Shown here piece by piece: positions 825-18,439 of a stretch of DNA of 37,712 nt (its first letter is position 1; every line of letters begins with the position of its first letter). The position numbers and the translations under genes were made by a program. Origin of the DNA: a virus (lineage: Duplodnaviria; Heunggongvirae; Uroviricota; Caudoviricetes); IMG/VR virus record IMGVR_UViG_2700989168_000004; one strand, 5' to 3'. A model generated the notes under the pieces. It saw nothing but the letters and a program-made list of their open reading frames with translations, had not been told where the DNA came from and did no database searches.

Positions 825-1649
825 TCAGGCGGTGAAAGTACCAATAAAGGTTTCTACTTTGCTGTCCTTGAATTTCTCAACAAGCAGATCACGAAATTCG
901 TTAGCCATTTCTTCCTGCACCGCCTCCAGCTGAATAATGCGCAGAACCAGTACAGGACGATCGCCAGTGATAATACTGAGGCGTAATTTAAACGGACGTT
1001 CTTTCAGACCTTCAAACGGAACGCATTTAAATTCAAATGCCACTGGCATAATGTCTTTGGTCTTCGCTTCGACAGACTCCATCAGGGAGCGTTTGCCGCT
1101 GAAGTCATTATCTTCAAAATCAGCGGTCTGGTTTGCTTCAATCGTGATTTTACGGACAGCCGCAGCCGCTTTTGTTGCCTGAATAGCGTCACCATTAGCA
1201 TCAAAGCCCACAAGATAGTCGGCCCAGTCTTCAATCCATTCTGCCAGTGACTTCTGGGAGTTACGCTCGCCGTTAACAGACAACAGAGCAGAGAACGGTG
1301 CTGTCTTTTTCAGTTTGAGTGTGGCGGTGTTATCTGCGTGACCTGGTTCATCAATAGTACCCAGGTTAAGCACACTGACGGCACGCATATTATCAGCATC
1401 GATAAAGCAGCGGGTGCCTTCATCTGCAAGATCTTTAGAATAACGGGTAAAGTCATCGATGCTGGCAGTGGAAAACGCACCACGGAAACGGAAGCGATTT
1501 AAATTAAATTTTTCCAGATCATGAATGCGGAAATTCTCAGGCAATGCCACAGCATCGGCACCAATCTTACTGATAATTTCATTAACACCCTGAGCAGAAA
1601 TAAGGGCATGGATTTGATTAATTGCGGTTGCGTCTAAGTTCTGAGACAT
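825..1649 (-). CDS. yfdQ: DUF2303-family prophage protein (YfdQ-like, 274 aa)
   Basis: 274-aa ORF with GAGGA RBS upstream of ATG; size and position between yfdP-like and yfdR-like genes match CPS-53 yfdQ. Family assignment from memory, not searched. Confidence 0.55.
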
Positions 1650-1714
1650 AATAAGTCCTCACTATATAAAGATATTCAGTGATGAGATAAATAATCAGTT
1701 AATTAAAAACGATA

Positions 1715-2077
1715 TTAACGACCTGCTGCGCGGAGTTTTCCGTCAGGTTCACCGGCAAGAGTCAGTAACTGTCCCTGGTCTTCCTGCAGAATAGTCAGGC
1801 GACCACCGCGATTGACATACATCGGCGTTTCGGTGGTGTCTTCTTCGGAAATTTTCCCGCGGTTAGTCGGGCGAACATATGAGAGTTTGTGTTTGATTTT
1901 CACTCGGTTCTCATCAAACGGTTCGATTTCCAGGTTGAGCGAGACCTTACCTTTGGTTTTCGTGTTCATCACACCGGAAGCGACTTCACTGAGAACTGCG
2001 CCGATTTTGGTTTCAAATACGCCGCCGTCCAGCTCCCCGATAAATGCCTGCACATCAGTACTGCGTTCGCTAGCCAT
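1715..2077 (-). CDS. yfdP: hypothetical early protein (YfdP-like, 120 aa)
   Basis: ATG at 2075-2077 preceded by GAGGAG RBS; the longer track ORF (to 2395) extends into a GC-rich stop-poor region and is rejected. The 120-aa product MASERSTDVQAFIGELDGG... matches the size expected for yfdP. Confidence 0.5.
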   Translation of the reverse strand: MASERSTDVQAFIGELDGGVFETKIGAVLSEVASGVMNTKTKGKVSLNLEIEPFDENRVKIKHKLSYVRPTNRGKISEEDTTETPMYVNRGGRLTILQEDQGQLLTLAGEPDGKLRAAGR

Positions 2078-2125
2078 TTTGCTGCTCCTCATCATATCGA
2101 CCCTGCAAGGTCGGTTAGTTTCTCC

Positions 2126-2214
2126 ACAAAACAGAGAAGAACACCTGCGGTGACTGCCGCCCGGATGGATTGGGTTATGAGCCCGTCGTCCGGTGATGCT
2201 CTTCTCTGTTTTGT
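2126..2214 (-). terminator. long stem-loop (perfect 15-bp inverted repeat ACAAAACAGAGAAGA / TCTTCTCTGTTTTGT around a 59-nt GC-rich loop); candidate tL-type terminator or processing site upstream of yfdP-like gene
   Basis: Arms at 2126-2140 and 2200-2214 are exact reverse complements; the 3' arm ends in UUUUGU on either strand. Sits between the upstream cargo and the yfdP RBS. Confidence 0.3.
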
Positions 2215-2481
2215 AAAAAGGACGGTACCAGCCGGAAGCAAGGGTACAAGCTGGTACCGCCAAGACTACACACAGCATAAAGTTGTGGTGCCGGGTGCCT
2301 CCCGGTGCCTGGCGAAGGTTGCACACCAGGCGGGTGGGTATCCACAGAAGGTCGACTGTCAGCCTCAACCTTAACCCGCGTGCGCTGAGCCGCATTCACC
2401 ACAACGCTAAGGATTCTCTCTGGTTGAAAATACTTAGCTGTTATGTGCCTGCTTTTAGCCACATCAGGCGAGGTGGACCTA

Positions 2482-2530
2482 GTTATTCCCCAACAACAAG
2501 GATTCGGTTAATCTGGTTATCCCCAACAAC
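2482..2530 (+). promoter_or_regulatory. pair of direct repeats GTTAT(T)CCCCAACAAC upstream of the 144-aa cargo gene; candidate regulator binding sites
   Basis: Repeat copies at 2482-2497 and 2516-2530, the second ending 15 bp before the ATG at 2546; no convincing sigma70 -35/-10 hexamers found nearby. Confidence 0.3.
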
Positions 2531-2545
2531 GCAAAAGGAAAAGAA

Positions 2546-2980
2546 ATGTCCGGTAATATCTATACGCTGTACAAATCCCACTGTGAAAATGTTGGAAAGT
2601 ATCGGGGCATTGAAATCAGTGGGGTAGTGTCATCAGTCGAAATAAGCAAAGTTGAATCAAGGGCAACATTACTTACTCTTTTGGACCTTGTCTTACATGA
2701 GCACCGGAAGAAATTCGGCACTCCCTATAATCAGTTGAATGGGAAAAAGGCTCTGGTTCACCTTATTCTGATGAAGCATCACTGGATGCCAAAACAGATT
2801 AATGAGATGAAATTTGATGAACTTCTTCTTTCAATTCAGGATGAACTCACACTTGATAAAATAAGCGTAACCGCCCAGAAATTTTTAGATTATCGAGACT
2901 GGAGATCACAAATTCATCACTTTGATGATTTTGACGAAAATGAATGGGATCCTAATTTGTCTGCACAATATCTAAAGTAA
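2546..2980 (+). CDS. hypothetical 144-aa protein, AT-rich cargo gene (function unknown)
   Basis: ATG with AAGGA RBS; coding region visibly AT-richer than flanking phage backbone; followed by a plus-strand intrinsic terminator; no recognisable motif or TM segment. Confidence 0.6.
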   Translation: MSGNIYTLYKSHCENVGKYRGIEISGVVSSVEISKVESRATLLTLLDLVLHEHRKKFGTPYNQLNGKKALVHLILMKHHWMPKQINEMKFDELLLSIQDELTLDKISVTAQKFLDYRDWRSQIHHFDDFDENEWDPNLSAQYLK

Positions 2981-3158
2981 CATCCTGTGATAAAACCGTG
3001 ATTTCCTGATCCAGTTTTTTTAAGGAGTCTATTGTTTCCTGTCGATAAGACAGCACTTCACGAAGCTGGTTTATAGCTGCCAGCTTCTTTGTCATCCACT
3101 CATAAATTTCCTCATCTGTGTAGCCAGGCGCGACGATTTTGGGTTCTGTTTTGTGCAT
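2952..3158 (-). CDS. hypothetical 68-aa protein, first ORF of the leftward PL transcript; convergent with and overlapping the 3' end of the 144-aa gene
   Basis: Strong RBS (GAGGAG, 7-nt spacer) before ATG at 3156-3158; the track start at 3173 is less likely. No arginine-rich motif, so not an obvious N homolog. Confidence 0.5.
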   Translation of the reverse strand: MHKTEPKIVAPGYTDEEIYEWMTKKLAAINQLREVLSYRQETIDSLKKLDQEITVLSQDVTLDIVQTN

Positions 3159-3202
3159 TTCACATCTCCTCAAGTTATCAGTTACTTGTTGATGGGGACC
3201 AG

Positions 3203-3215
3203 ATTGTTAAAGAGC
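3203..3215 (-). promoter_or_regulatory. boxA-like element (GCTCTTTAACAAT) in the PL leader RNA
   Basis: Minus-strand sequence GCUCUUUAACAAU matches the rrn/lambdoid boxA core (Nus factor binding) and lies just 3' of a hairpin in the leader. Confidence 0.45.
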
Positions 3216-3217
3216 TA

Positions 3218-3243
3218 AGCGTCCTGTAGGGCGCTTTTTTGTT
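3218..3243 (+). terminator. rho-independent terminator after the 144-aa cargo gene
   Basis: Stem AGCGTCC / GGGCGCT (one G-U wobble) with 4-nt loop, followed by TTTTTTGTT on the plus strand; on the minus strand the same hairpin has a C-A mismatch and no U tract. Confidence 0.55.
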
Positions 3244-3320
3244 GCTAACGAATCATCCTGGACTTCATATGCCCCAGGCGGCTACTTCGTGGGCGTCCTG
3301 CCTGTTCGTTGTTTCGCTTG

Positions 3321-3353
3321 GGTACATTATGTATCTCAAAGGTACATTGTCAA
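3321..3353 (-). promoter_or_regulatory. PL-type early-left promoter with embedded operator (OL)
   Basis: Minus strand reads TTGACA - 16 nt - CATAAT; the spacer contains a near-palindrome ATGTACC-5nt-GATACAT sharing the GTAC half-site with the OR palindromes. Confidence 0.55.
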
Positions 3354-3355
3354 GT

Positions 3356-3380
3356 ATAAAAAAACCTGCCGAAGCAGGTT
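3356..3380 (-). terminator. rho-independent terminator downstream of the repressor gene
   Basis: Minus strand: AACCTGC-UUCG-GCAGGUU followed by UUUUUUAU, directly after the cI stop. Confidence 0.6.
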
Positions 3381-3392
3381 CATAAACATTGA

Positions 3393-4067
3393 TTAGGCTT
3401 TGATTTTGTATCTTCTTGGTTTTCCTGAGAAAATCACTGTACCAATTATAGAGCAATTACCGTTGATCTTAATGTAAGGCTCAGGCCAGTTTGGGTTTAA
3501 CGCTTTGAGATAACGCTGTGTCCCATCTTCTATCAACCTTTTGAAGGTGGTTTCGCCTGTATCGTGCATCAATGCAATAACGTCGTCACCGTGGCAGGCA
3601 GGTACTTCAGGATCGACAAAAATCATGTCTCCCGGGCGGTACTCATCAATCATTGAATCACCTATCACCCGCAAGATATAAGTCATTTCCCCACAGGGTA
3701 CAGGGCAGGGATACGTTTCTGCTGTGCTCAAATCAACCTCAGAATATCCAACTTCTTTCCATGCTCCGGCCTGTACCCATGATATGACAGGGACTAATGT
3801 GATTTGTTTATTAGTGATTGAAACATCAGGTTTTTTTGTGATGTTCGTTGTCTGGTGTTCTTGATCGAGCCATCCGACAGGCAGGTCGAAACATTTTTCG
3901 ATGTGTCGTGCCATGCTGTCACCGATATTTTTAGTAGCACCATCTCCCATAAACCTGCTGGTCTGGGTTGGCTCGCGATCAATCATAGTGGCAAAGGAAG
4001 AATTCCCGCCAACACCATCTCTCAGTTTTCTGGCGTTAGACCGCCGGATGTCATGGATTGTTTTCAT
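3393..4067 (-). CDS. cI: CI-type prophage repressor (N-terminal HTH, C-terminal S24 LexA-like peptidase domain)
   Basis: 224 aa; C-terminal segment with ISWVQAGAW...GDSM-like autocleavage domain pattern; divergent from a Cro-like gene across a region with palindromic operators. Confidence 0.85.
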   Translation of the reverse strand: MKTIHDIRRSNARKLRDGVGGNSSFATMIDREPTQTSRFMGDGATKNIGDSMARHIEKCFDLPVGWLDQEHQTTNITKKPDVSITNKQITLVPVISWVQAGAWKEVGYSEVDLSTAETYPCPVPCGEMTYILRVIGDSMIDEYRPGDMIFVDPEVPACHGDDVIALMHDTGETTFKRLIEDGTQRYLKALNPNWPEPYIKINGNCSIIGTVIFSGKPRRYKIKA

Positions 4068-10468: not shown

Positions 10469-10993
10469 TTATTGTTTAACCCATAATAATTCATTGACAT
10501 TGAATCCCAACTTTTGAGCGGTTCGCACATAGTCTGCTTTTACTTTATCTGGAATAGTTGGGGTCCTTGCCAGAATCCATAGGTATTCTCTGTTCGGACC
10601 ACTGACAAGAGCATACTTATACTCATCATCCAGTTTGATTACATTATAGCCACCATAGAAGGGGCCAAAAAACGAAACCTTCAATGCTGCAGTTTTAGTA
10701 TCTCCAGTAAAGTATGCTTTACCTTCGCTCTCGCTCCATTTATTTTTCGTTGGATCGTATCCACGGTTAAGTACACGAATCCCTCCGTCGTTCCGTTTTC
10801 CATAAGTAGCGCTGACCTGTTCCAGATCACGTTCGAACCGGTTCTCGAGGCGAGCTATTTCATACCATTTTCCGAGGTAGCGGTTGGCGTCAAAATTTGT
10901 AATCGGCTGCACACCTTTAGGTGGTGTCGGGGCCTTACATGCTATAAGAGTGAAAGAGAGTGCAATGCCAGTCAACACAGGCCATAACTTCAT
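10469..10993 (-). CDS. blc: outer-membrane lipocalin (Blc homolog) lipoprotein
   Basis: Signal peptide with lipobox (LIAC), and long colinear matches to E. coli Blc as recalled (NFDAxRYLGxWYEIAR, KVSFFGPFYGGYNVI, YLWILxRTP). Confidence 0.9.
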   Translation of the reverse strand: MKLWPVLTGIALSFTLIACKAPTPPKGVQPITNFDANRYLGKWYEIARLENRFERDLEQVSATYGKRNDGGIRVLNRGYDPTKNKWSESEGKAYFTGDTKTAALKVSFFGPFYGGYNVIKLDDEYKYALVSGPNREYLWILARTPTIPDKVKADYVRTAQKLGFNVNELLWVKQ

Positions 10994-11185
10994 AATAAAT
11001 CCTGTACTTTTGATAGTTGAGAGTAAGTATGAAAGATAGATGATTACGACCGATCACTTAAAGAACTTTCATACTATATTAGGAATAGTCCATAACAGAA
11101 AAATTGTCAGTGATGACGCCAGAAAGGCAATTTATTCCGTGCACTACACAGTTTATGTGTTAATGAATTAGTCAAGGGGGAGAAT

Positions 11186-12145
11186 ATGATAAAAAAACCT
11201 GTGATTGGAATCAGCGGTTGTTTGGCCGGTTCTGCTGTTCGTTTTGATGGTGGTCACAAAAGAGCTGACTTTTTAATGGACAAATTAGTGGAATGGGTAA
11301 CATTCAGACCAGTATGTCCGGAAATGGCTATAGGGCTGCCAGTTCCGCGTCCTGCTCTACGTCTTGTGCGCTCGACGCAAGGAAATATACGGATGTGTTT
11401 CAGCCACGACCAGAATGAGGATGTGACAGAGAGAATGACAGAGTTTAGTCGTTCTTATATGGACAAATTAAAGGATGTATCGGGGTTTGTGGTTTGTGCT
11501 AAATCTCCCAGCTGTGGCATGGAGCGCGTGCGTGTCTATGATGAAAATGGTAATCGAGGTCGTAAAGATGGAGTGGGACTATTTACGAGTACTTTGATGG
11601 AAAAGTTTTCCTGGCTACCGGTTGAAGAGGATGGGCGATTACATGATCCAGTGCTTCGTGAGAATTTTGTTGAAAGAGTTTTTGCTTTGCATGAGCTCAA
11701 TCACCTTTACAAGGAGAAATTATCAAGAAGAGAGTTATTAGCTTTTCATAGTCGTTATAAGCTTCAGTTGTTGTCGCATAGTCAGGCAGGCTATAAAGAT
11801 ATGGGACCATTTGTGGCTGCAATACACGAGTGGGCGGACCTTGAATCATACTTTGAGGTGTATCGTGATAAGCTGATGGCGATTCTCAGAAAACCTGCAT
11901 CACGTAAAAATCACACGAATGTGCTGATGCATATACAGGGGTATTTTAGTAACTACTTAAGTACACGCCAGCGTAAAGAGTTGAGCGAGGTTATACTTAA
12001 CTATCGTTCTGGCACATTACCTCTTCTTGCGCCGTTGACTCTGCTGAAGCATTATCTGGGTGAGTATCCTAATGATTACTTGCTTACACAGAATTACTTC
12101 GATCCCTATCCGGACGAACTGGCTCTAAGACTGATGGTAAATTAA
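11186..12145 (+). CDS. DUF523 (TudS-like thiouracil desulfurase family) - DUF1722 fusion protein (tentative)
   Basis: N-terminal GISGCLAG..VRFDGG and further conserved Cys residues resemble DUF523; C-terminal half resembles YbgA/DUF1722; RBS GGGGGAG before ATG. Confidence 0.5.
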   Translation: MIKKPVIGISGCLAGSAVRFDGGHKRADFLMDKLVEWVTFRPVCPEMAIGLPVPRPALRLVRSTQGNIRMCFSHDQNEDVTERMTEFSRSYMDKLKDVSGFVVCAKSPSCGMERVRVYDENGNRGRKDGVGLFTSTLMEKFSWLPVEEDGRLHDPVLRENFVERVFALHELNHLYKEKLSRRELLAFHSRYKLQLLSHSQAGYKDMGPFVAAIHEWADLESYFEVYRDKLMAILRKPASRKNHTNVLMHIQGYFSNYLSTRQRKELSEVILNYRSGTLPLLAPLTLLKHYLGEYPNDYLLTQNYFDPYPDELALRLMVN

Positions 12146-12496
12146 TTGTATGCGATATCATCCAAAAGGATGAGTTCCTGCATGCAGGATATTTACAATC
12201 GTAAAAACTACACTATGATACCCAGAGTGTCAGTTTGTATAAAAACTCTGTTTACGCTGAAGAAACAATTGAGATGCAACTTAAAGTTGGTAAACATGCC
12301 AGTCAAAATATATAATATTATGATTCCACGCAGCTATATATAATATAACAGATTGGTTTAATAATTTGTCTTTGTGAGTTAAATACATAATTTTATACTT
12401 GTGATGCAATGAAATTTTCCTTATTGTTGAACTTGCGAATATTGATTTTCCACCTATACTTACCTGGTGTAACCCCAATGATATCAGGTGGATAAT

Positions 12497-13228
12497 ATGC
12501 CATACATATGTTCTATCATTTTGGTGTTGAACTCGTTTGATGTCCGAATTGGTAAAGAAGATATTTTGTTTAAAAAAGGAAGTGCTGTTCTCATTGATTA
12601 CAATTTAAAAGATTTTTTTTCATCAAATATAGATCATGTAATGATCGTAGATGTTGAAGAGAAAACAGTTAATGATTTCTTTAAAAGCAACACACTCTCA
12701 CCTTTTTCTGTAAGAAGGTTTTATCCGGCATACTTGATGGTGGAATGTGAAGATTTTTCATTGTTAAAGAACTTGATTGCATGCTTGAATTGTGATGGCA
12801 GAACTGTGGATTTTGTTAGAAATCAAATATCACTTGCATGTCTTGCTATCTTATCTTCAGAGAAAATAGTGCAAAGTTTTTTATTTGGATGTCTTAATAG
12901 TTTAGGAAGTAAAGTTAAGGCTATTATTCACACGGATATATCTGCAGCATGGAGACTTTGTGATATATCTTCAAGACTGTATCTGAGTGAAAGTCTGTTA
13001 AAAAGAAAATTAAAGCACGAAGGCTTATCATTTAGTAAGTTAATTCTTGAAGAGCGAATGGTGATGGCGGAAAGGTTATTAAGCTACAATTTATATTCTG
13101 TTGGAAAAGTTGCTGAGATATGCGGTTATGAAAACACGTCATATTTTGTGAGTGTTTTCAGAAGATATTTTGGTGTTCCTCCCCATCAATATTCATCAAG
13201 ATTTTTTTTAGAAAAAGACATGATGTAA
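12497..13228 (+). CDS. AraC-family transcriptional regulator
   Basis: C-terminal dual-HTH AraC signature (...KVAEICGYENTSYFVSVFRRYFGVPPHQY); gene is strongly AT-rich; ATG 12497 after AGGTGG. Confidence 0.85.
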   Translation: MPYICSIILVLNSFDVRIGKEDILFKKGSAVLIDYNLKDFFSSNIDHVMIVDVEEKTVNDFFKSNTLSPFSVRRFYPAYLMVECEDFSLLKNLIACLNCDGRTVDFVRNQISLACLAILSSEKIVQSFLFGCLNSLGSKVKAIIHTDISAAWRLCDISSRLYLSESLLKRKLKHEGLSFSKLILEERMVMAERLLSYNLYSVGKVAEICGYENTSYFVSVFRRYFGVPPHQYSSRFFLEKDMM

Positions 13229-13289
13229 CGTGATGCGTTTTAATGATTTTGTAATTTTCGTATTTGATAATTGTATGATGCTTTCAGCT

Positions 13290-13321
13290 ACGCCAGAATA
13301 ATCGCTGGCGTTTTTCTTTTT
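13290..13321 (+). terminator. rho-independent terminator after the AraC-family gene
   Basis: Stem ACGCCAG / CTGGCGT followed by TTTTTCTTTTT. Confidence 0.6.
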
Positions 13322-13416: not shown

Positions 13417-13632
13417 ATGAAATCTATGGATAAGTTAACAACGGGCATTGCCTACGGCACCTCCGCAGGCAGTGCTGGCTACTGGTTTTTACAGCTGCTC
13501 GATAAAGTCACGCCCTCACAGTGGGCAGCAATAGGTGTGCTGGGTAGCCTGGTATTTGGCCTGCTGACGTACCTGACAAACCTTTATTTCAAGATTAAAG
13601 AAGATAAGCGCAAGGCTGCGAGAGGTGAATAA
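13417..13632 (+). CDS. pinholin (phage 21 S21-type class II holin) with dual-start motif
   Basis: Near-identical by recall to S21 ([24 protein letters not shown]...KAARGE); two Met codons (M1, M4) as in antiholin/holin S2171/S2168. Confidence 0.9.
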
Positions 13633-14129
13633 TGCCTCCATCATTACGAAAAGCCGTTGCTGCGGCTATTGGTGGCGGGGCTATTGCTATAGCATCTGTG
13701 TTAATCACTGGCCCAAGTGGTAACGATGGTCTGGAAGGCGTCAGCTACATACCATATAAAGATATCGTTGGTGTATGGACTGTATGTTACGGGCATACCG
13801 GAAAAGACATTATGCTCGGTAAAACGTATACCGAAGCAGAATGCAAAGCCCTCCTGAATAAAGACCTTGCCACTGTCGCCAGACAAATTAACCCGTACAT
13901 CAAAGTCGATATACCGGAAACAACGCGCGGCGCTCTTTACTCGTTCGTTTACAACGTTGGTGCTGGAAATTTCAGAACATCGACACTTCTTCGCAAAATA
14001 AACCAGGGCGATATCAAAGGCGCATGTGATCAGCTACGGCGCTGGACATACGCTGGCGGTAAGCAATGGAAAGGGCTGATGACTCGCCGTGAGATTGAGC
14101 GTGAAGTCTGTTTGTGGGGGCAACAATGA
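13632..14129 (+). CDS. SAR (signal-anchor-release) endolysin, lysozyme family
   Basis: N-terminal hydrophobic Gly/Ala-rich SAR segment followed by lysozyme catalytic region; start overlaps holin stop (TAATG). Confidence 0.9.
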
Positions 14130-14569
14130 GTAGAGTAACCGCGATTATCTCCGCTCTGGTTATCAGCATCATCGTCTGCCTGTCATGGGCTGTTAATCAT
14201 TACCGTGATAACGCCATGACCTACAAAGAACAGCGCGACAAAGCCACATCCATCATCGCTGACATGCAGAAGCGTCAACATGATGTAGCTGAACTCGACG
14301 CCAGATACACAAAGGAGCTTGCTGATGCTAACGCGACTATCGAAAGTCTTCGTGCTGATGTTTCTGCTGGTCGTAAGTGGCTGCACGTCAAAGCAGTCTG
14401 TCCGGACAAGCATAAAACCACCGCCGCCTCCGGCGTGGATGATGCTTCCAGCCCCAGACTTACTGACACCGCTCAACGGGATTATTTCGTTCTCAGAGAG
14501 CGCATCGAAACCATAACTAACCAATTGAATGGCCTGCAAGAATATGTGAGATCACAGTGTTCATATTAG
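14126..14569 (+). CDS. i-spanin Rz
   Basis: N-terminal TM segment, coiled-coil-rich body, directly after the endolysin (ATGA overlap); contains embedded Rz1 frame. Confidence 0.8.
14358..14516 (+). CDS. o-spanin Rz1 (lipoprotein) embedded in the +1 frame of Rz
   Basis: Signal peptide with lipobox (VVSGC) followed by proline-rich segment ([10 protein letters not shown]); entirely inside Rz. Confidence 0.7.
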
Positions 14570-14607
14570 AAAAGTCTTATCATAAGATTTTTGTATATGG
14601 ATGCATT

Positions 14608-14982
14608 ATGTCTCAATACGCTCACGTTGCTTTAATCGCTTATCATTTGGTGGCTGATAGCTCAATGACTCCTCGTGATGCATGGGATGCAGCTATCGCA
14701 GAGGTTACAGAAAGCGAATCGTCAAGAAAGAAGATATGCCCAAGGGCAACATTTCTCGCCCTGGCGGATAGCGGTTACCTGAAGAATGTAAAACCACTGC
14801 ATGGGGAGAAAAAAGGCGGTAAGTTGTACCAAAGGGCAATTGAAGTTGCGAATCTGATTCTTGATTTACCCGGAATCAGTAAAGCTGAATTGGTTGATAA
14901 AACTGGTTACAAAGACAGGCAAGGGTCTTATGACCTGATTCTCGCTCTGTATCATCATGAGCAACTCCAGCGATCGGAATAA
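14608..14982 (+). CDS. hypothetical 124-aa protein (unknown function)
   Basis: ORF between spanins and packaging genes; the track start at 14557 is a GTG overlapping Rz, so ATG 14608 is preferred; no motif recognised. Confidence 0.45.
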   Translation: MSQYAHVALIAYHLVADSSMTPRDAWDAAIAEVTESESSRKKICPRATFLALADSGYLKNVKPLHGEKKGGKLYQRAIEVANLILDLPGISKAELVDKTGYKDRQGSYDLILALYHHEQLQRSE

Positions 14983-15099
14983 TTATCCCAGCATCAGTGT
15001 CAAAAATAGGCAGTGATACGCTATTTTCCTGAAAATACTTTACTAACATTTTATGAGAATTATCCTAGTAATGTGTTTATTTAAAAGGAGTTTGGGTTT

Positions 15100-15303
15100 A
15101 TGAAAATTCTCTGGGTCATCAGTCTTTTGTGTAGTGCTATTGGATTTATTGAAGGAATCCTCGGGGTTTTCGGTGCTCAGAGTGCTCCACAACAGGCTGC
15201 AGGTGCAGCAATGGGAGTAGCATGGGCAGTTATTCCATATTGTATTTGTCGTGCTATCCAACAATTGCGCCCTCGAGAAGTCATTATTAAAAAGGAAGAA
15301 TGA
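15100..15303 (+). CDS. hypothetical small membrane protein (67 aa, two predicted TM helices)
   Basis: GGAG RBS before ATG; two hydrophobic stretches and a basic C-terminus; preceded by an AT-rich promoter-like spacer. Confidence 0.45.
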   Translation: MKILWVISLLCSAIGFIEGILGVFGAQSAPQQAAGAAMGVAWAVIPYCICRAIQQLRPREVIIKKEE

Positions 15304-15368
15304 CCAGATCTTATCCGGTGTTTTTTCTGTCTAAGCCTCGCGTCGCGGGGCTTTTTATTGGAGCCAGC

Positions 15369-15776
15369 ATGCCACCACGAACCCCAAAAGCCTGCCGTGT
15401 TCGCGGCTGCCGCCATACCACAACTGNNNNNNNNNNNNNNNNNNNNNNNNNNNNNNNNNNNNNNNNNNNNNNNNNNNNNNNNNNNNNNNNNNNNNNNNNN
15501 NNNNNNNNNNNNNNNNNNNNNNNNNAGCAATACAAGCCGGGCCAGTCCAGACACCAGCGCGGTTATGGTTCGAAATGGGATGTTATCCGTGAACGTGTGC
15601 TCAAGCGTGACAAAGGACTGTGTCAGTTATGTCTGCGTGGTGGTGTGGTACGTGAGGCGAAAACCGTTGACCACATCATCCCTAAAGCGCATGGCGGCAC
15701 TGATGCCGACAGCAATCTGCAGAGCCTGTGCTGGCCGTGTCATAAGGCGAAGACGGCCCGTGAACGGTTGAAGTAA
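15369..15776 (+). CDS. phage HNH endonuclease (packaging-associated); interrupted by N run 15427-15525
   Basis: C-terminal HNH motif (VDHIIPKAHGG...N...CWPCH); N-terminal CRVRGC zinc-finger-like start; immediately upstream of terminase genes. Confidence 0.8.
   Translation: MPPRTPKACRVRGCRHTTTXXXXXXXXXXXXXXXXXXXXXXXXXXXXXXXXXXQYKPGQSRHQRGYGSKWDVIRERVLKRDKGLCQLCLRGGVVREAKTVDHIIPKAHGGTDADSNLQSLCWPCHKAKTARERLK
15427..15525. other. run of 99 N (assembly gap or masked bases)
   Basis: Literal n characters in the sequence. Confidence 1.
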
Positions 15777-15901: not shown

Positions 15902-16487
15902 ATGGCTGGAACGGCGGGGCGTTCCGGGCGTCGCCCCAAGCCAACGGCGCGCAAGGCGCTGNNNNNNNNNNNNNNNNNNNNNNNNNNNNNNNNNNNNNNN
16001 NNNNNNNNNNNNNNNNNNNNNNNNNAACCCCGGCAAGCGAGCCCTGAACAAAGATGAACCTGTTTTTACGCCCATCAAAGGTGTTGAGCCACCGGAGTGG
16101 TTCGCAGAAGAAGATCTCCCTCTCGCCACGATCATGTGGCAACTGACAACCAAAGAACTCTGCGGTCAGGGCCTGCTGTGCGTGACTGACCTTGCGGTAC
16201 TTGAGCGGTGGTGCGTGGCCTATGAGTTCTGGCGACGTGCCGTGAAAAATATTGCCAGACAGGGCAACACCATCACCGGTGCAATGGGTGGCATGGTTAA
16301 AAATCCGGAGCTGACCGCCAAGAAAGAACAGGAGTCCGAGATGAGCAGCACGGGGGCAATGCTCGGACTCGACCCCAGCAGCCGCCAGCGTCTGATTGGC
16401 CTGGCGGGGCAGAAGAAAGCNNNNNNNNNNNNNNNNNNNNNNNNNNNNNNNNNNNNNNNNNNNNNNNNNNNNNNNNNNNNNNNNTAA
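15902..16487 (+). CDS. terminase small subunit (P27-family-like); interrupted by two N runs, frame inferred
   Basis: Starts MAGTAGRSGRRPKPTARKAL (typical of this family) at ATG 15902; resumes after the gap in the track frame; stop TAA directly after the second N run. Confidence 0.7.
15962..16025. other. run of 64 N
   Basis: Literal n characters. Confidence 1.
16421..16484. other. run of 64 N
   Basis: Literal n characters. Confidence 1.
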
Positions 16488-16511
16488 CCCGTTTCTGAAA
16501 ATCATCGAATC

Positions 16512-18256: not shown

Positions 18257-18439
18257 ATGATCATGCTGATTCTCGCGCCTCTGGTGGGCGTGCTGGGTGC
18301 GCTTTTGCTGGCATATGGTGCCTGGCTGATTTATCCCCCGGCGGGTTTTGTTGTTGCCGGGGCGTTGTGCCTGTTCTGGTCGTGGCTGGTAGCGCGATAT
18401 CTCGATCGTACACAGCTGTCTGTTGGTGGAGGTAAATAG
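18257..18439 (+). CDS. hypothetical small membrane protein (60 aa)
   Basis: GAGGT RBS before ATG; two hydrophobic stretches; fills the terminase-portal gap. Confidence 0.4.

Follow-up and report, generated by a model that had tools for sequence, protein, structure and literature searches.

The interval at positions 14608-15303 most probably contains two independent accessory genes, which recombination brought together in the cargo slot that separates the lysis genes from cos. It lies in a 37,712-nucleotide stretch of DNA that was analysed as a whole (the window). According to this explanation, the two genes would not be a two-component system; the first gene (ORF1) would be linked to Rz, and the second (ORF2) would be a mobile cassette. 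Overall, these are ordinary cargo genes in a well-known cargo slot, and the picture of the prophage is unchanged. The product of ORF2 belongs to a family that has no name, and its predicted cassette would be a tidy, testable mobile moron.

The prophage locus and the ORF1 protein

The window is a lambdoid prophage of the SfI/SfV/e14 type. The region searched (14557-15320) is 100% identical to Shigella flexneri phage SfI, which is an isolated, functional phage (PMC3636060). A prophage of E. coli WP8-S18-ESBL-07 also matches positions 14570-15320 at 100% identity. The genes are arranged locally in the order holin, SAR endolysin, Rz/Rz1, ORF1, ORF2, HNH, P27-type TerS, TerL, and portal. The downstream neighbour of ORF2 is the HNH gene, which is the first gene of the HNH/P27-type TerS/TerL packaging module, and the cos site lies beyond the HNH gene. 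In SfI, cos is the end of the linearised genome, and is located between the lysis cassette and the small terminase gene (PMC3636060). The features of the locus are as follows.

13417-13632: S21-type holin
13632-14129: SAR endolysin
14126-14569, plus strand: Rz i-spanin gene, annotated as Rz in SfI and as 'lysis protein' in E. coli
About 14319-14516: Rz1, embedded in Rz
14570-14598, plus strand: AT-rich hairpin with a U-run at its 3' side, in the Rz-ORF1 gap
14608-14982, plus strand: ORF1, 124 aa, DUF6979 / PHROG 5039, same coordinates as SfI gp63
14934-14982, plus strand: mosaic junction within the 3' end of ORF1
14990-15022, plus strand: hairpin followed by AUUUU, 3' of the ORF1 stop (-10.4 kcal/mol, z = -2.75)
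15039-15044, plus strand: predicted -35 of the ORF2 promoter, TTTACT, a conserved hexamer
15061-15066, plus strand: predicted -10 of the ORF2 promoter, TATCCT, after a 16-nt spacer from the -35
15085-15090, plus strand: Shine-Dalgarno sequence of ORF2, AAGGAG, 9 nt 5' of the ATG, read off the sequence
15100-15303, plus strand: ORF2, 67 aa, PHROG 12304, no Pfam family
15333-15358, plus strand: intrinsic terminator of the ORF2 cassette, AAGCCTCGC-GTC-GCGGGGCTT followed by TTTTT
15369-15776, plus strand: HNH endonuclease gene, annotated in SfI and E. coli, partly N-masked

The ends and sizes of both ORFs are exactly those given in the initial annotation, and its view that accessory genes were inserted between the lysis and packaging modules is borne out. 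Its statement that lambdoid phages normally go straight from lysis to terminase does not hold, as related lambdoid prophages have other small ORFs between Rz and the terminase genes. The GC content is 0.365-0.44 in the spacer and ORF2, versus 0.45-0.53 in the lysis genes and 0.52-0.57 in the unmasked parts of the packaging genes; the contrast is modest.

Other features were observed elsewhere in the window. Three N runs (15428-15526, about 15960-16030, and about 16420-16490) fall inside the HNH and small terminase genes. Counting its N run, the HNH frame exceeds the HNH gene of SfI and E. coli WP8 (351 nt) by 57 nt; either the mask is not true to the original length, or it conceals a real insertion. 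A 60-aa ORF with two hydrophobic stretches (18257-18439, plus strand) lies between the large terminase and portal genes. It is the e14 prophage gene ymfR in RefSeq, and is a second small putative membrane protein, in the packaging module. A low-GC cargo island (10469-13228; GC about 0.33 at 13000-13300) lies between the Q antiterminator and the holin. It contains a minus-strand lipocalin, a 319-aa YbgA-family protein, and a 246-aa AraC-type HTH regulator; the equivalent slot of SfI has tRNA-Asn and tRNA-Thr instead.

The ORF1 frame is also open from a GTG at 14557. The ATG at 14608 is supported as the start, because the Pfam model and all of the homologues begin there, and both ends are identical to those of SfI gp63, which is annotated as a hypothetical protein. 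The initial annotation found no recognisable motif in either protein. For ORF1 this needs correction, since it matches Pfam DUF6979 (PF22399) with E = 2.6e-28 and 99.1 bits (gathering cutoff 27). ORF1 residues 1-120 correspond to model positions 1-126 of 127, indicating a full-length member. The signatures of the family are an A-W pair in helix 2 and a K-x-C-P loop ahead of helix 4, and ORF1 keeps the near-invariant residues A25, W26, K42, C44, and P45. The DUF6979 family also has an FLGLCE motif, but the second Cys is absent from the enterobacterial phage branch; ORF1 has FLALAD, with Ala at this position.

ORF1 contains no hydrophobic segment, with a highest 19-residue Kyte-Doolittle mean of 1.05 (cut-off 1.6), in agreement with its earlier description as soluble. 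Seven helices were predicted with high confidence (AlphaFold2, pLDDT 92). According to this model, ORF1 is a small cytoplasmic all-alpha protein with a conserved basic K-x-C-P loop. It has no PADLOC match, and no match to a known function or fold. The dN/dS values are 0.19-0.40 for ORF1, while the medians for ORF2 are 0.058 for dN/dS and 1.3 for dS (454 pairs, 41 distinct coding sequences). The homologues of both are widespread. ORF1 and ORF2 are genuine genes under purifying selection, not chance ORFs.

The distance from the Rz stop to the ORF1 start is 38 nt, and this gap is occupied by the hairpin at 14570-14598 (-12.2 kcal/mol, z = -2.95 versus shuffles), which could be a weak terminator or a translational element. 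A scan of the Rz-ORF1 gap identified no promoter-like site on the plus strand ahead of ORF1, and a gap of 38 nt leaves no room for one. A moron has a promoter of its own, and ORF1 has none; it is late-operon cargo rather than a classical moron. Among the viral loci with a close ORF1 relative (at least 73% identity), the gene follows an Rz homologue directly in 43 of 46, regardless of the type of endolysin or terminase. The absence of an own promoter, the position 38 nt behind Rz, and the Rz-linked inheritance together point to late co-expression with the lysis genes. Most likely, ORF1 would be made from the Q-antiterminated late transcript alongside them.

The ORF2 cassette and its insertion sites

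The ORF2 cassette is about 330 bp long and comprises a putative promoter, a ribosome-binding site, the ORF, and a hairpin terminator. The flanks of the ORF2 relatives were aligned, using 48 distinct upstream and 48 distinct downstream sequences. TTTAC[T/A] and TAT[C/T][C/A]T, separated by exactly 16 nt, are present in 43 of the 48 upstream sequences with 24 different spacers, and the similarity stops just 5' of the -35 hexamer. The start codon in this alignment is located 30-33 nt after the -10 hexamer, with (A/T)GGAG ahead of it. On the other side, a GCCTCGC/GCGGGGC stem with a T-run is found in 45 of the 48 downstream sequences with 13 different loops. The similarity ends at the T-run, and the DNA beyond it is unrelated among the relatives. 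The terminator scan gave 9 pairs (6 G-C) for the copy in the window, which ends 10 nt ahead of the HNH start codon at 15369.

The hexamers and the stem are kept while the spacer, the loop, and the flanks drift, which argues for selection on both the promoter and the terminator. The conserved hexamers are a predicted sigma-70-type promoter. Each hexamer agrees with the sigma-70 consensus at 4/6 positions by eye, which is a moderate match, and the site was not flagged by the generic promoter scan at its 9-of-12 threshold. The ORF1-ORF2 spacer (117 nt) is AT-rich, with a GC content of 0.365, and the promoter-like character ascribed to it earlier is consistent with the conserved hexamer pair. Being 3' of ORF1, the predicted promoter would serve ORF2 only. 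Thus, the proposed own promoter is retained for ORF2, together with an own terminator, and is dropped for ORF1. The hairpin at 14990-15022 may be a weak terminator upstream of the cassette.

A moron is defined, following Juhala and Hendrix, as an independent transcription unit with its own promoter and terminator that is horizontally spread among phages (PMC3594210). ORF2 has a predicted promoter and a terminator of its own, a variable presence and position, and a deviant GC content. Judged from these features, ORF2 appears to be a complete, self-contained mobile moron cassette. Since the cassette is complete and has moved as a unit, its expression in a repressed lysogen should follow. It would be transcribed alone in the repressed lysogen, and would be read through in late transcription.

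Structure prediction of ORF2 (AlphaFold2, pLDDT 87) gave a helix at residues 2-24, a turn, and a second helix at residues 29-56. Helix 1 is clearly hydrophobic; helix 2 is Ala/Gly-rich, and its 19-residue Kyte-Doolittle value of about 1.4 (by hand) is under the 1.6 cut-off. The earlier description of a small membrane protein is consistent with this predicted two-helix hairpin. The invariant core consists of S-A-P-Q-Q-A-A-G-A at the turn and I-P-Y-C in the second helix. ORF2 is unannotated in the SfI record and is a hypothetical protein in the RefSeq E. coli genomes. Its relatives reach the Xanthomonadales, Pseudomonas, Caulobacteraceae, Bacteroidota, and Acidobacteriota. In the relatives from Dokdonella (locus L187) and Tahibacter (locus L196), the hairpin is preceded by an N-terminal CxxC...CxxC zinc-ribbon extension of some 60 residues; this suggests a cytoplasmic N-terminus for ORF2. 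In some phages, a gene for an exported protein or a lipoprotein is located 3' of ORF2; these belong to three unrelated families, so ORF2 appears to have no fixed partner. ORF2 matched no known family of assigned function, no known fold, and no PADLOC defence model. Its sole PADLOC hit, to the transmembrane stretch of PycC (E = 0.026), is at chance level. Remote homology and structure prediction thus placed ORF1 in DUF6979 and predicted a hairpin for ORF2, and gave no known function or fold for either.

At least five kinds of site harbour the cassette, and the genes immediately upstream of the ORF2 relatives fall into 34 different clusters. In 54 of 72 viral loci, the terminase genes come shortly after the ORF2 relative (TerS/TerL within three ORFs), and the cassette precedes three unrelated terminase types, Nu1, DUF1441, and HNH/P27. 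This placement may be due to a permissive slot next to cos, or to a late function. Other sites are in tail regions. In Pantoea, the cassette is found one gene upstream of the tape-measure gene, and in Edwardsiella phage Edno5 it follows that gene directly. A Yersinia prophage carries it in the tail-gene region, and in Buttiauxella and Pseudomonas it separates tail genes K and I. It is also present on a Pantoea plasmid, and beside icd in Ewingella. In a P4-like island of Morganella morganii, it directly follows an 800-aa protein that was judged tape-measure-like by eye and has no Pfam match. This island (loci L005-L008) also contains a DUF927/Toprim primase and a ProQ/FinO-domain protein, and its ORF2 relative is followed by an overlapping gene for a 114-aa exported protein. 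A tape-measure-like gene and an ORF2 gene are unexpected content for such a satellite-like element.

The placement before the terminase genes bears on the proposal that ORF2 is a late phage accessory, namely a lysis-timing or antiholin-like protein or a membrane factor of packaging or cos, and not a factor of lysogenic conversion. Such a role is considered improbable. The recurrence of the cassette ahead of unrelated terminase types and its position in the path of the late transcript fit this proposal. Holins and antiholins are typically small membrane proteins with two helices, and the predicted build of ORF2 is similar. However, ORF2 has a conserved putative promoter and a terminator of its own. 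Most related prophages have no ORF2, including SfI-like ones with the same Rz, and its frequency among complete E. coli genomes is about 1%. The tail modules, the P4-like island, the plasmid, and the chromosomal sites also speak against a late function. Moreover, the window already has a full set of S21-type holin, SAR endolysin, and Rz/Rz1. ORF2 was also considered as a holin or antiholin itself, and was rejected, since no holin family was found among its Pfam or PHROG matches and its placement in the lysis cassette is not constant.

It is highly improbable that ORF2 is a small membrane toxin, either a type I toxin or an abortive-infection effector, which would depolarise the membrane when over-produced or triggered. 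The small hydrophobic hairpin, with a G-x-x-x-G-like, Ala/Gly-rich second helix, and the carriage on mobile elements are in line with a toxin. On the other hand, neither an antisense promoter nor an antitoxin partner is present in the cassette, and for a toxin, a strong ribosome-binding site behind a seemingly constitutive promoter would be lethal. The loop and the second helix are under very strong purifying selection and are conserved across phyla, which suggests the binding of a specific partner rather than a generic pore.

DUF6979 relatives and the distribution of the two genes

The DUF6979 profile search identified 524 cluster representatives at E <= 0.001 and 835 clusters at E <= 1e-5. 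The family is present in bacteria and archaea, and its members are nearly always stand-alone proteins of about 125-135 aa. No assigned function, solved structure, or literature was found for it. In the lambdoid phages, the DUF6979 genes are located in one of two places, 3' of the spanin genes or in the stretch from Q to the holin. These two late-operon positions are classic cargo slots. In an Enterobacter-type prophage, the slot between Q and the holin carries an 821-aa pyocin-S/colicin-DNase gene with an immunity gene (locus L002 versus L003, about 1300-4035). In a close relative of that prophage, the bacteriocin gene is swapped for a DUF6979 gene and a minus-strand ORF, leaving the immunity gene orphaned.

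Outside the phages, DUF6979 genes stand alone in variable islands, which also contain integrases, toxin-antitoxin pairs, an HNH nuclease, Zorya ZorC/ZorD, and GmrSD-type restriction genes. Among 126 neighbours of 80 metagenomic loci, no recurrent partner family of DUF6979 was found; scattered restriction-modification genes and candidate defence genes were the only ones of this kind. Two metagenome contigs (L279 5001-6275 and L281 1455-2732) encode 424-aa proteins with DUF6979 at residues 1-128 fused to HEPN. The HEPN part matches PF05168 (E = 3e-8), and this fusion is rare and was found in one metagenomic lineage. By eye, a ...TRYPD sequence near the C-terminus of these fusions resembles the usual HEPN signature. 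Another protein (P0146, 476 aa) has DUF6979 with a C-terminal extension, in which Pfam recognised no HEPN. At five metagenomic loci (L240/L241/L243 5451-6035 on the minus strand, L255, and L262), a convergent gene 75-77 nt downstream of DUF6979 encodes a small domain, whose motif is RAGD(V/I)H..(L/M)G......P.VC.AL. The same domain is fused to the N-terminus of DUF6979 in protein P0152, and it has no Pfam match. The island contexts of DUF6979 and the occasional HEPN fusion make a conflict role the best guess for ORF1. As a binding or regulatory factor in phage-host conflict, this is a guess and no more, and a reasonable one, based on scattered neighbours and one rare fusion.

The distribution of the two genes was compared in 5426 complete E. 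coli genomes. ORF1 was found in 249 genomes and the ORF2 cassette in 52 (about 1%). ORF2 was never found without ORF1 (52/52 together), while ORF1 was found without ORF2 in 197 of the 249. The 52 ORF2 copies represent a single arrangement with at least 95% identity (51 at 99% or more). The 197 ORF1-only prophages keep the Rz-ORF1 unit, which is then followed by other DNA and by other packaging modules, including the lambda Nu1/gpA type, the DUF1441 type, and others. These 197 E. coli genomes, and 7 phage records, match only to query position 365-378. The break is near 14934, within the last 16 or so codons of ORF1. The sequence up to about 14934 is common to the ORF1-only prophages; beyond it, the sequence goes with ORF2 and the HNH/P27-terminase module. 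The C-terminal 16-25 residues of ORF1 differ between the ORF1-only and the ORF1+ORF2 groups.

ORF2 relatives were also found in 80 viral contigs. DUF6979 adjoins ORF2 in 18 of these, all with ORF2 about 99-100% identical to that of the window, and 61 have no DUF6979 within 6 kb. The remaining one is an Enterobacter-type prophage, in which DUF6979 follows Q and lies 2.2 kb away from ORF2, which follows the spanin gene. No co-inheritance of ORF1 and ORF2 across lineages was found, either in the E. coli genomes or in the viral contigs. The presence/absence comparison across prophages thus gave independent distributions, which suggest that the ORF1-ORF2 adjacency is the product of one lineage-specific recombination. 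In view of the 52/52 co-occurrence, a lineage-specific functional link between the two genes in E. coli is conceivable.

The initial annotation took the two genes for an exclusion or abortive-infection module, with a soluble sensor or regulator, a membrane effector, and a promoter in the spacer. This is scarcely credible: the genes are adjacent on the same strand, every E. coli copy of ORF2 adjoins ORF1, the junction inside ORF1 implies that the donor phage probably also had DUF6979 next to ORF2, and DUF6979 occurs elsewhere in defence islands and fused to HEPN, but the predicted promoter is 3' of ORF1 and would serve ORF2 only, neither gene matches a PADLOC model, one prophage has the two genes in different slots, the E. 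coli co-occurrence is a single arrangement, and the independent distributions (197/249 and 61/80) largely refute it. Two independent accessory genes joined by recombination remain the preferred explanation of the interval; an exclusion role for ORF2 alone is possible, by analogy.

ORF2 function and known systems

The best reading of ORF2, based on analogy, is an inner-membrane lysogenic-conversion factor. The hairpin would probably be inserted into the inner membrane, its two ends facing the cytoplasm and the invariant SAPQQAAGA segment lying at the periplasmic turn. ORF2 would then act in lysogenic conversion through the binding of a membrane partner. The likeliest specific form of this function is the blocking of genome entry by superinfecting phages, as described for HK97 gp15. 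It is suggested by the analogy, and is held to be possible but doubtful.

A joint reading of both families is rather unlikely. In this reading, the ORF2 family (PHROG 12304) would be a new, widespread class of prophage inner-membrane proteins, and the stand-alone DUF6979 proteins would be late counter-defence or regulatory factors. ORF2 would be carried around as one unit from promoter to terminator, and would shield lysogens through the invariant SAPQQAAGA...IPYC hairpin, by blocking genome entry or by modulating a host membrane protein. The relatives of the ORF1-like proteins would include the N-terminal domain of some HEPN proteins as well as genes that adjoin type IV restriction enzymes.

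If ORF2 acts from the lysogen, it would be a compact, easily cloned, and widespread addition to the few morons of known job. If this is true, ORF2 might also provide a 67-residue handle on the targeted membrane step. The cassette, as predicted, would be an unusually clean example of moron movement. The result for ORF1 ties DUF6979 to the lambdoid late operon, and loosely to defence islands and HEPN fusions. This link might be helpful to experimenters as a starting hypothesis.

The two genes were compared with three known systems. The HEPN conflict proteins (PF05168, AbiV-like) resemble ORF1 in that some DUF6979 domains are located N-terminal to HEPN, and other DUF6979 members adjoin GmrSD, Zorya, or HNH genes. 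In contrast, ORF1 has neither a HEPN domain nor a neighbour of this kind.

The Rz-cos interval of lambdoid phages is a cargo slot, as in the case of lambda bor. The bor gene occupies the same slot as ORF1 and ORF2, 3' of the spanins and 5' of cos and the terminase genes, and the content of the slot is likewise non-essential and variable between related phages. However, bor encodes a lipoprotein and is on the opposite strand; ORF1 and ORF2 are unrelated to Bor and have no lipobox. The bor gene is described in PMC3594210.

HK97 gp15 is a moron-encoded inner-membrane superinfection-exclusion protein, which is located beside the tape-measure gene and blocks genome entry (Cumby, Davidson and Maxwell, PMC3594210). 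No sequence similarity links ORF2 to gp15 or to any other known exclusion protein, and gp15 and ORF2 have no motif in common. The predicted structures are also different: a single N-terminal hydrophobic helix with a coiled cytoplasmic tail for gp15, and a two-helix hairpin for the ORF2 model. The cassette in the window is located ahead of the packaging genes, not in the tail operon. The resemblance between ORF2 and gp15 is one of layout only. Both are of similar size (67 and 62 aa) and are stand-alone units in a lambdoid late operon, both have a terminator at the 3' side, which is annotated in the case of gp15, and a predicted inner-membrane product, and more distant relatives of ORF2 also occupy this kind of slot beside the tape-measure gene.
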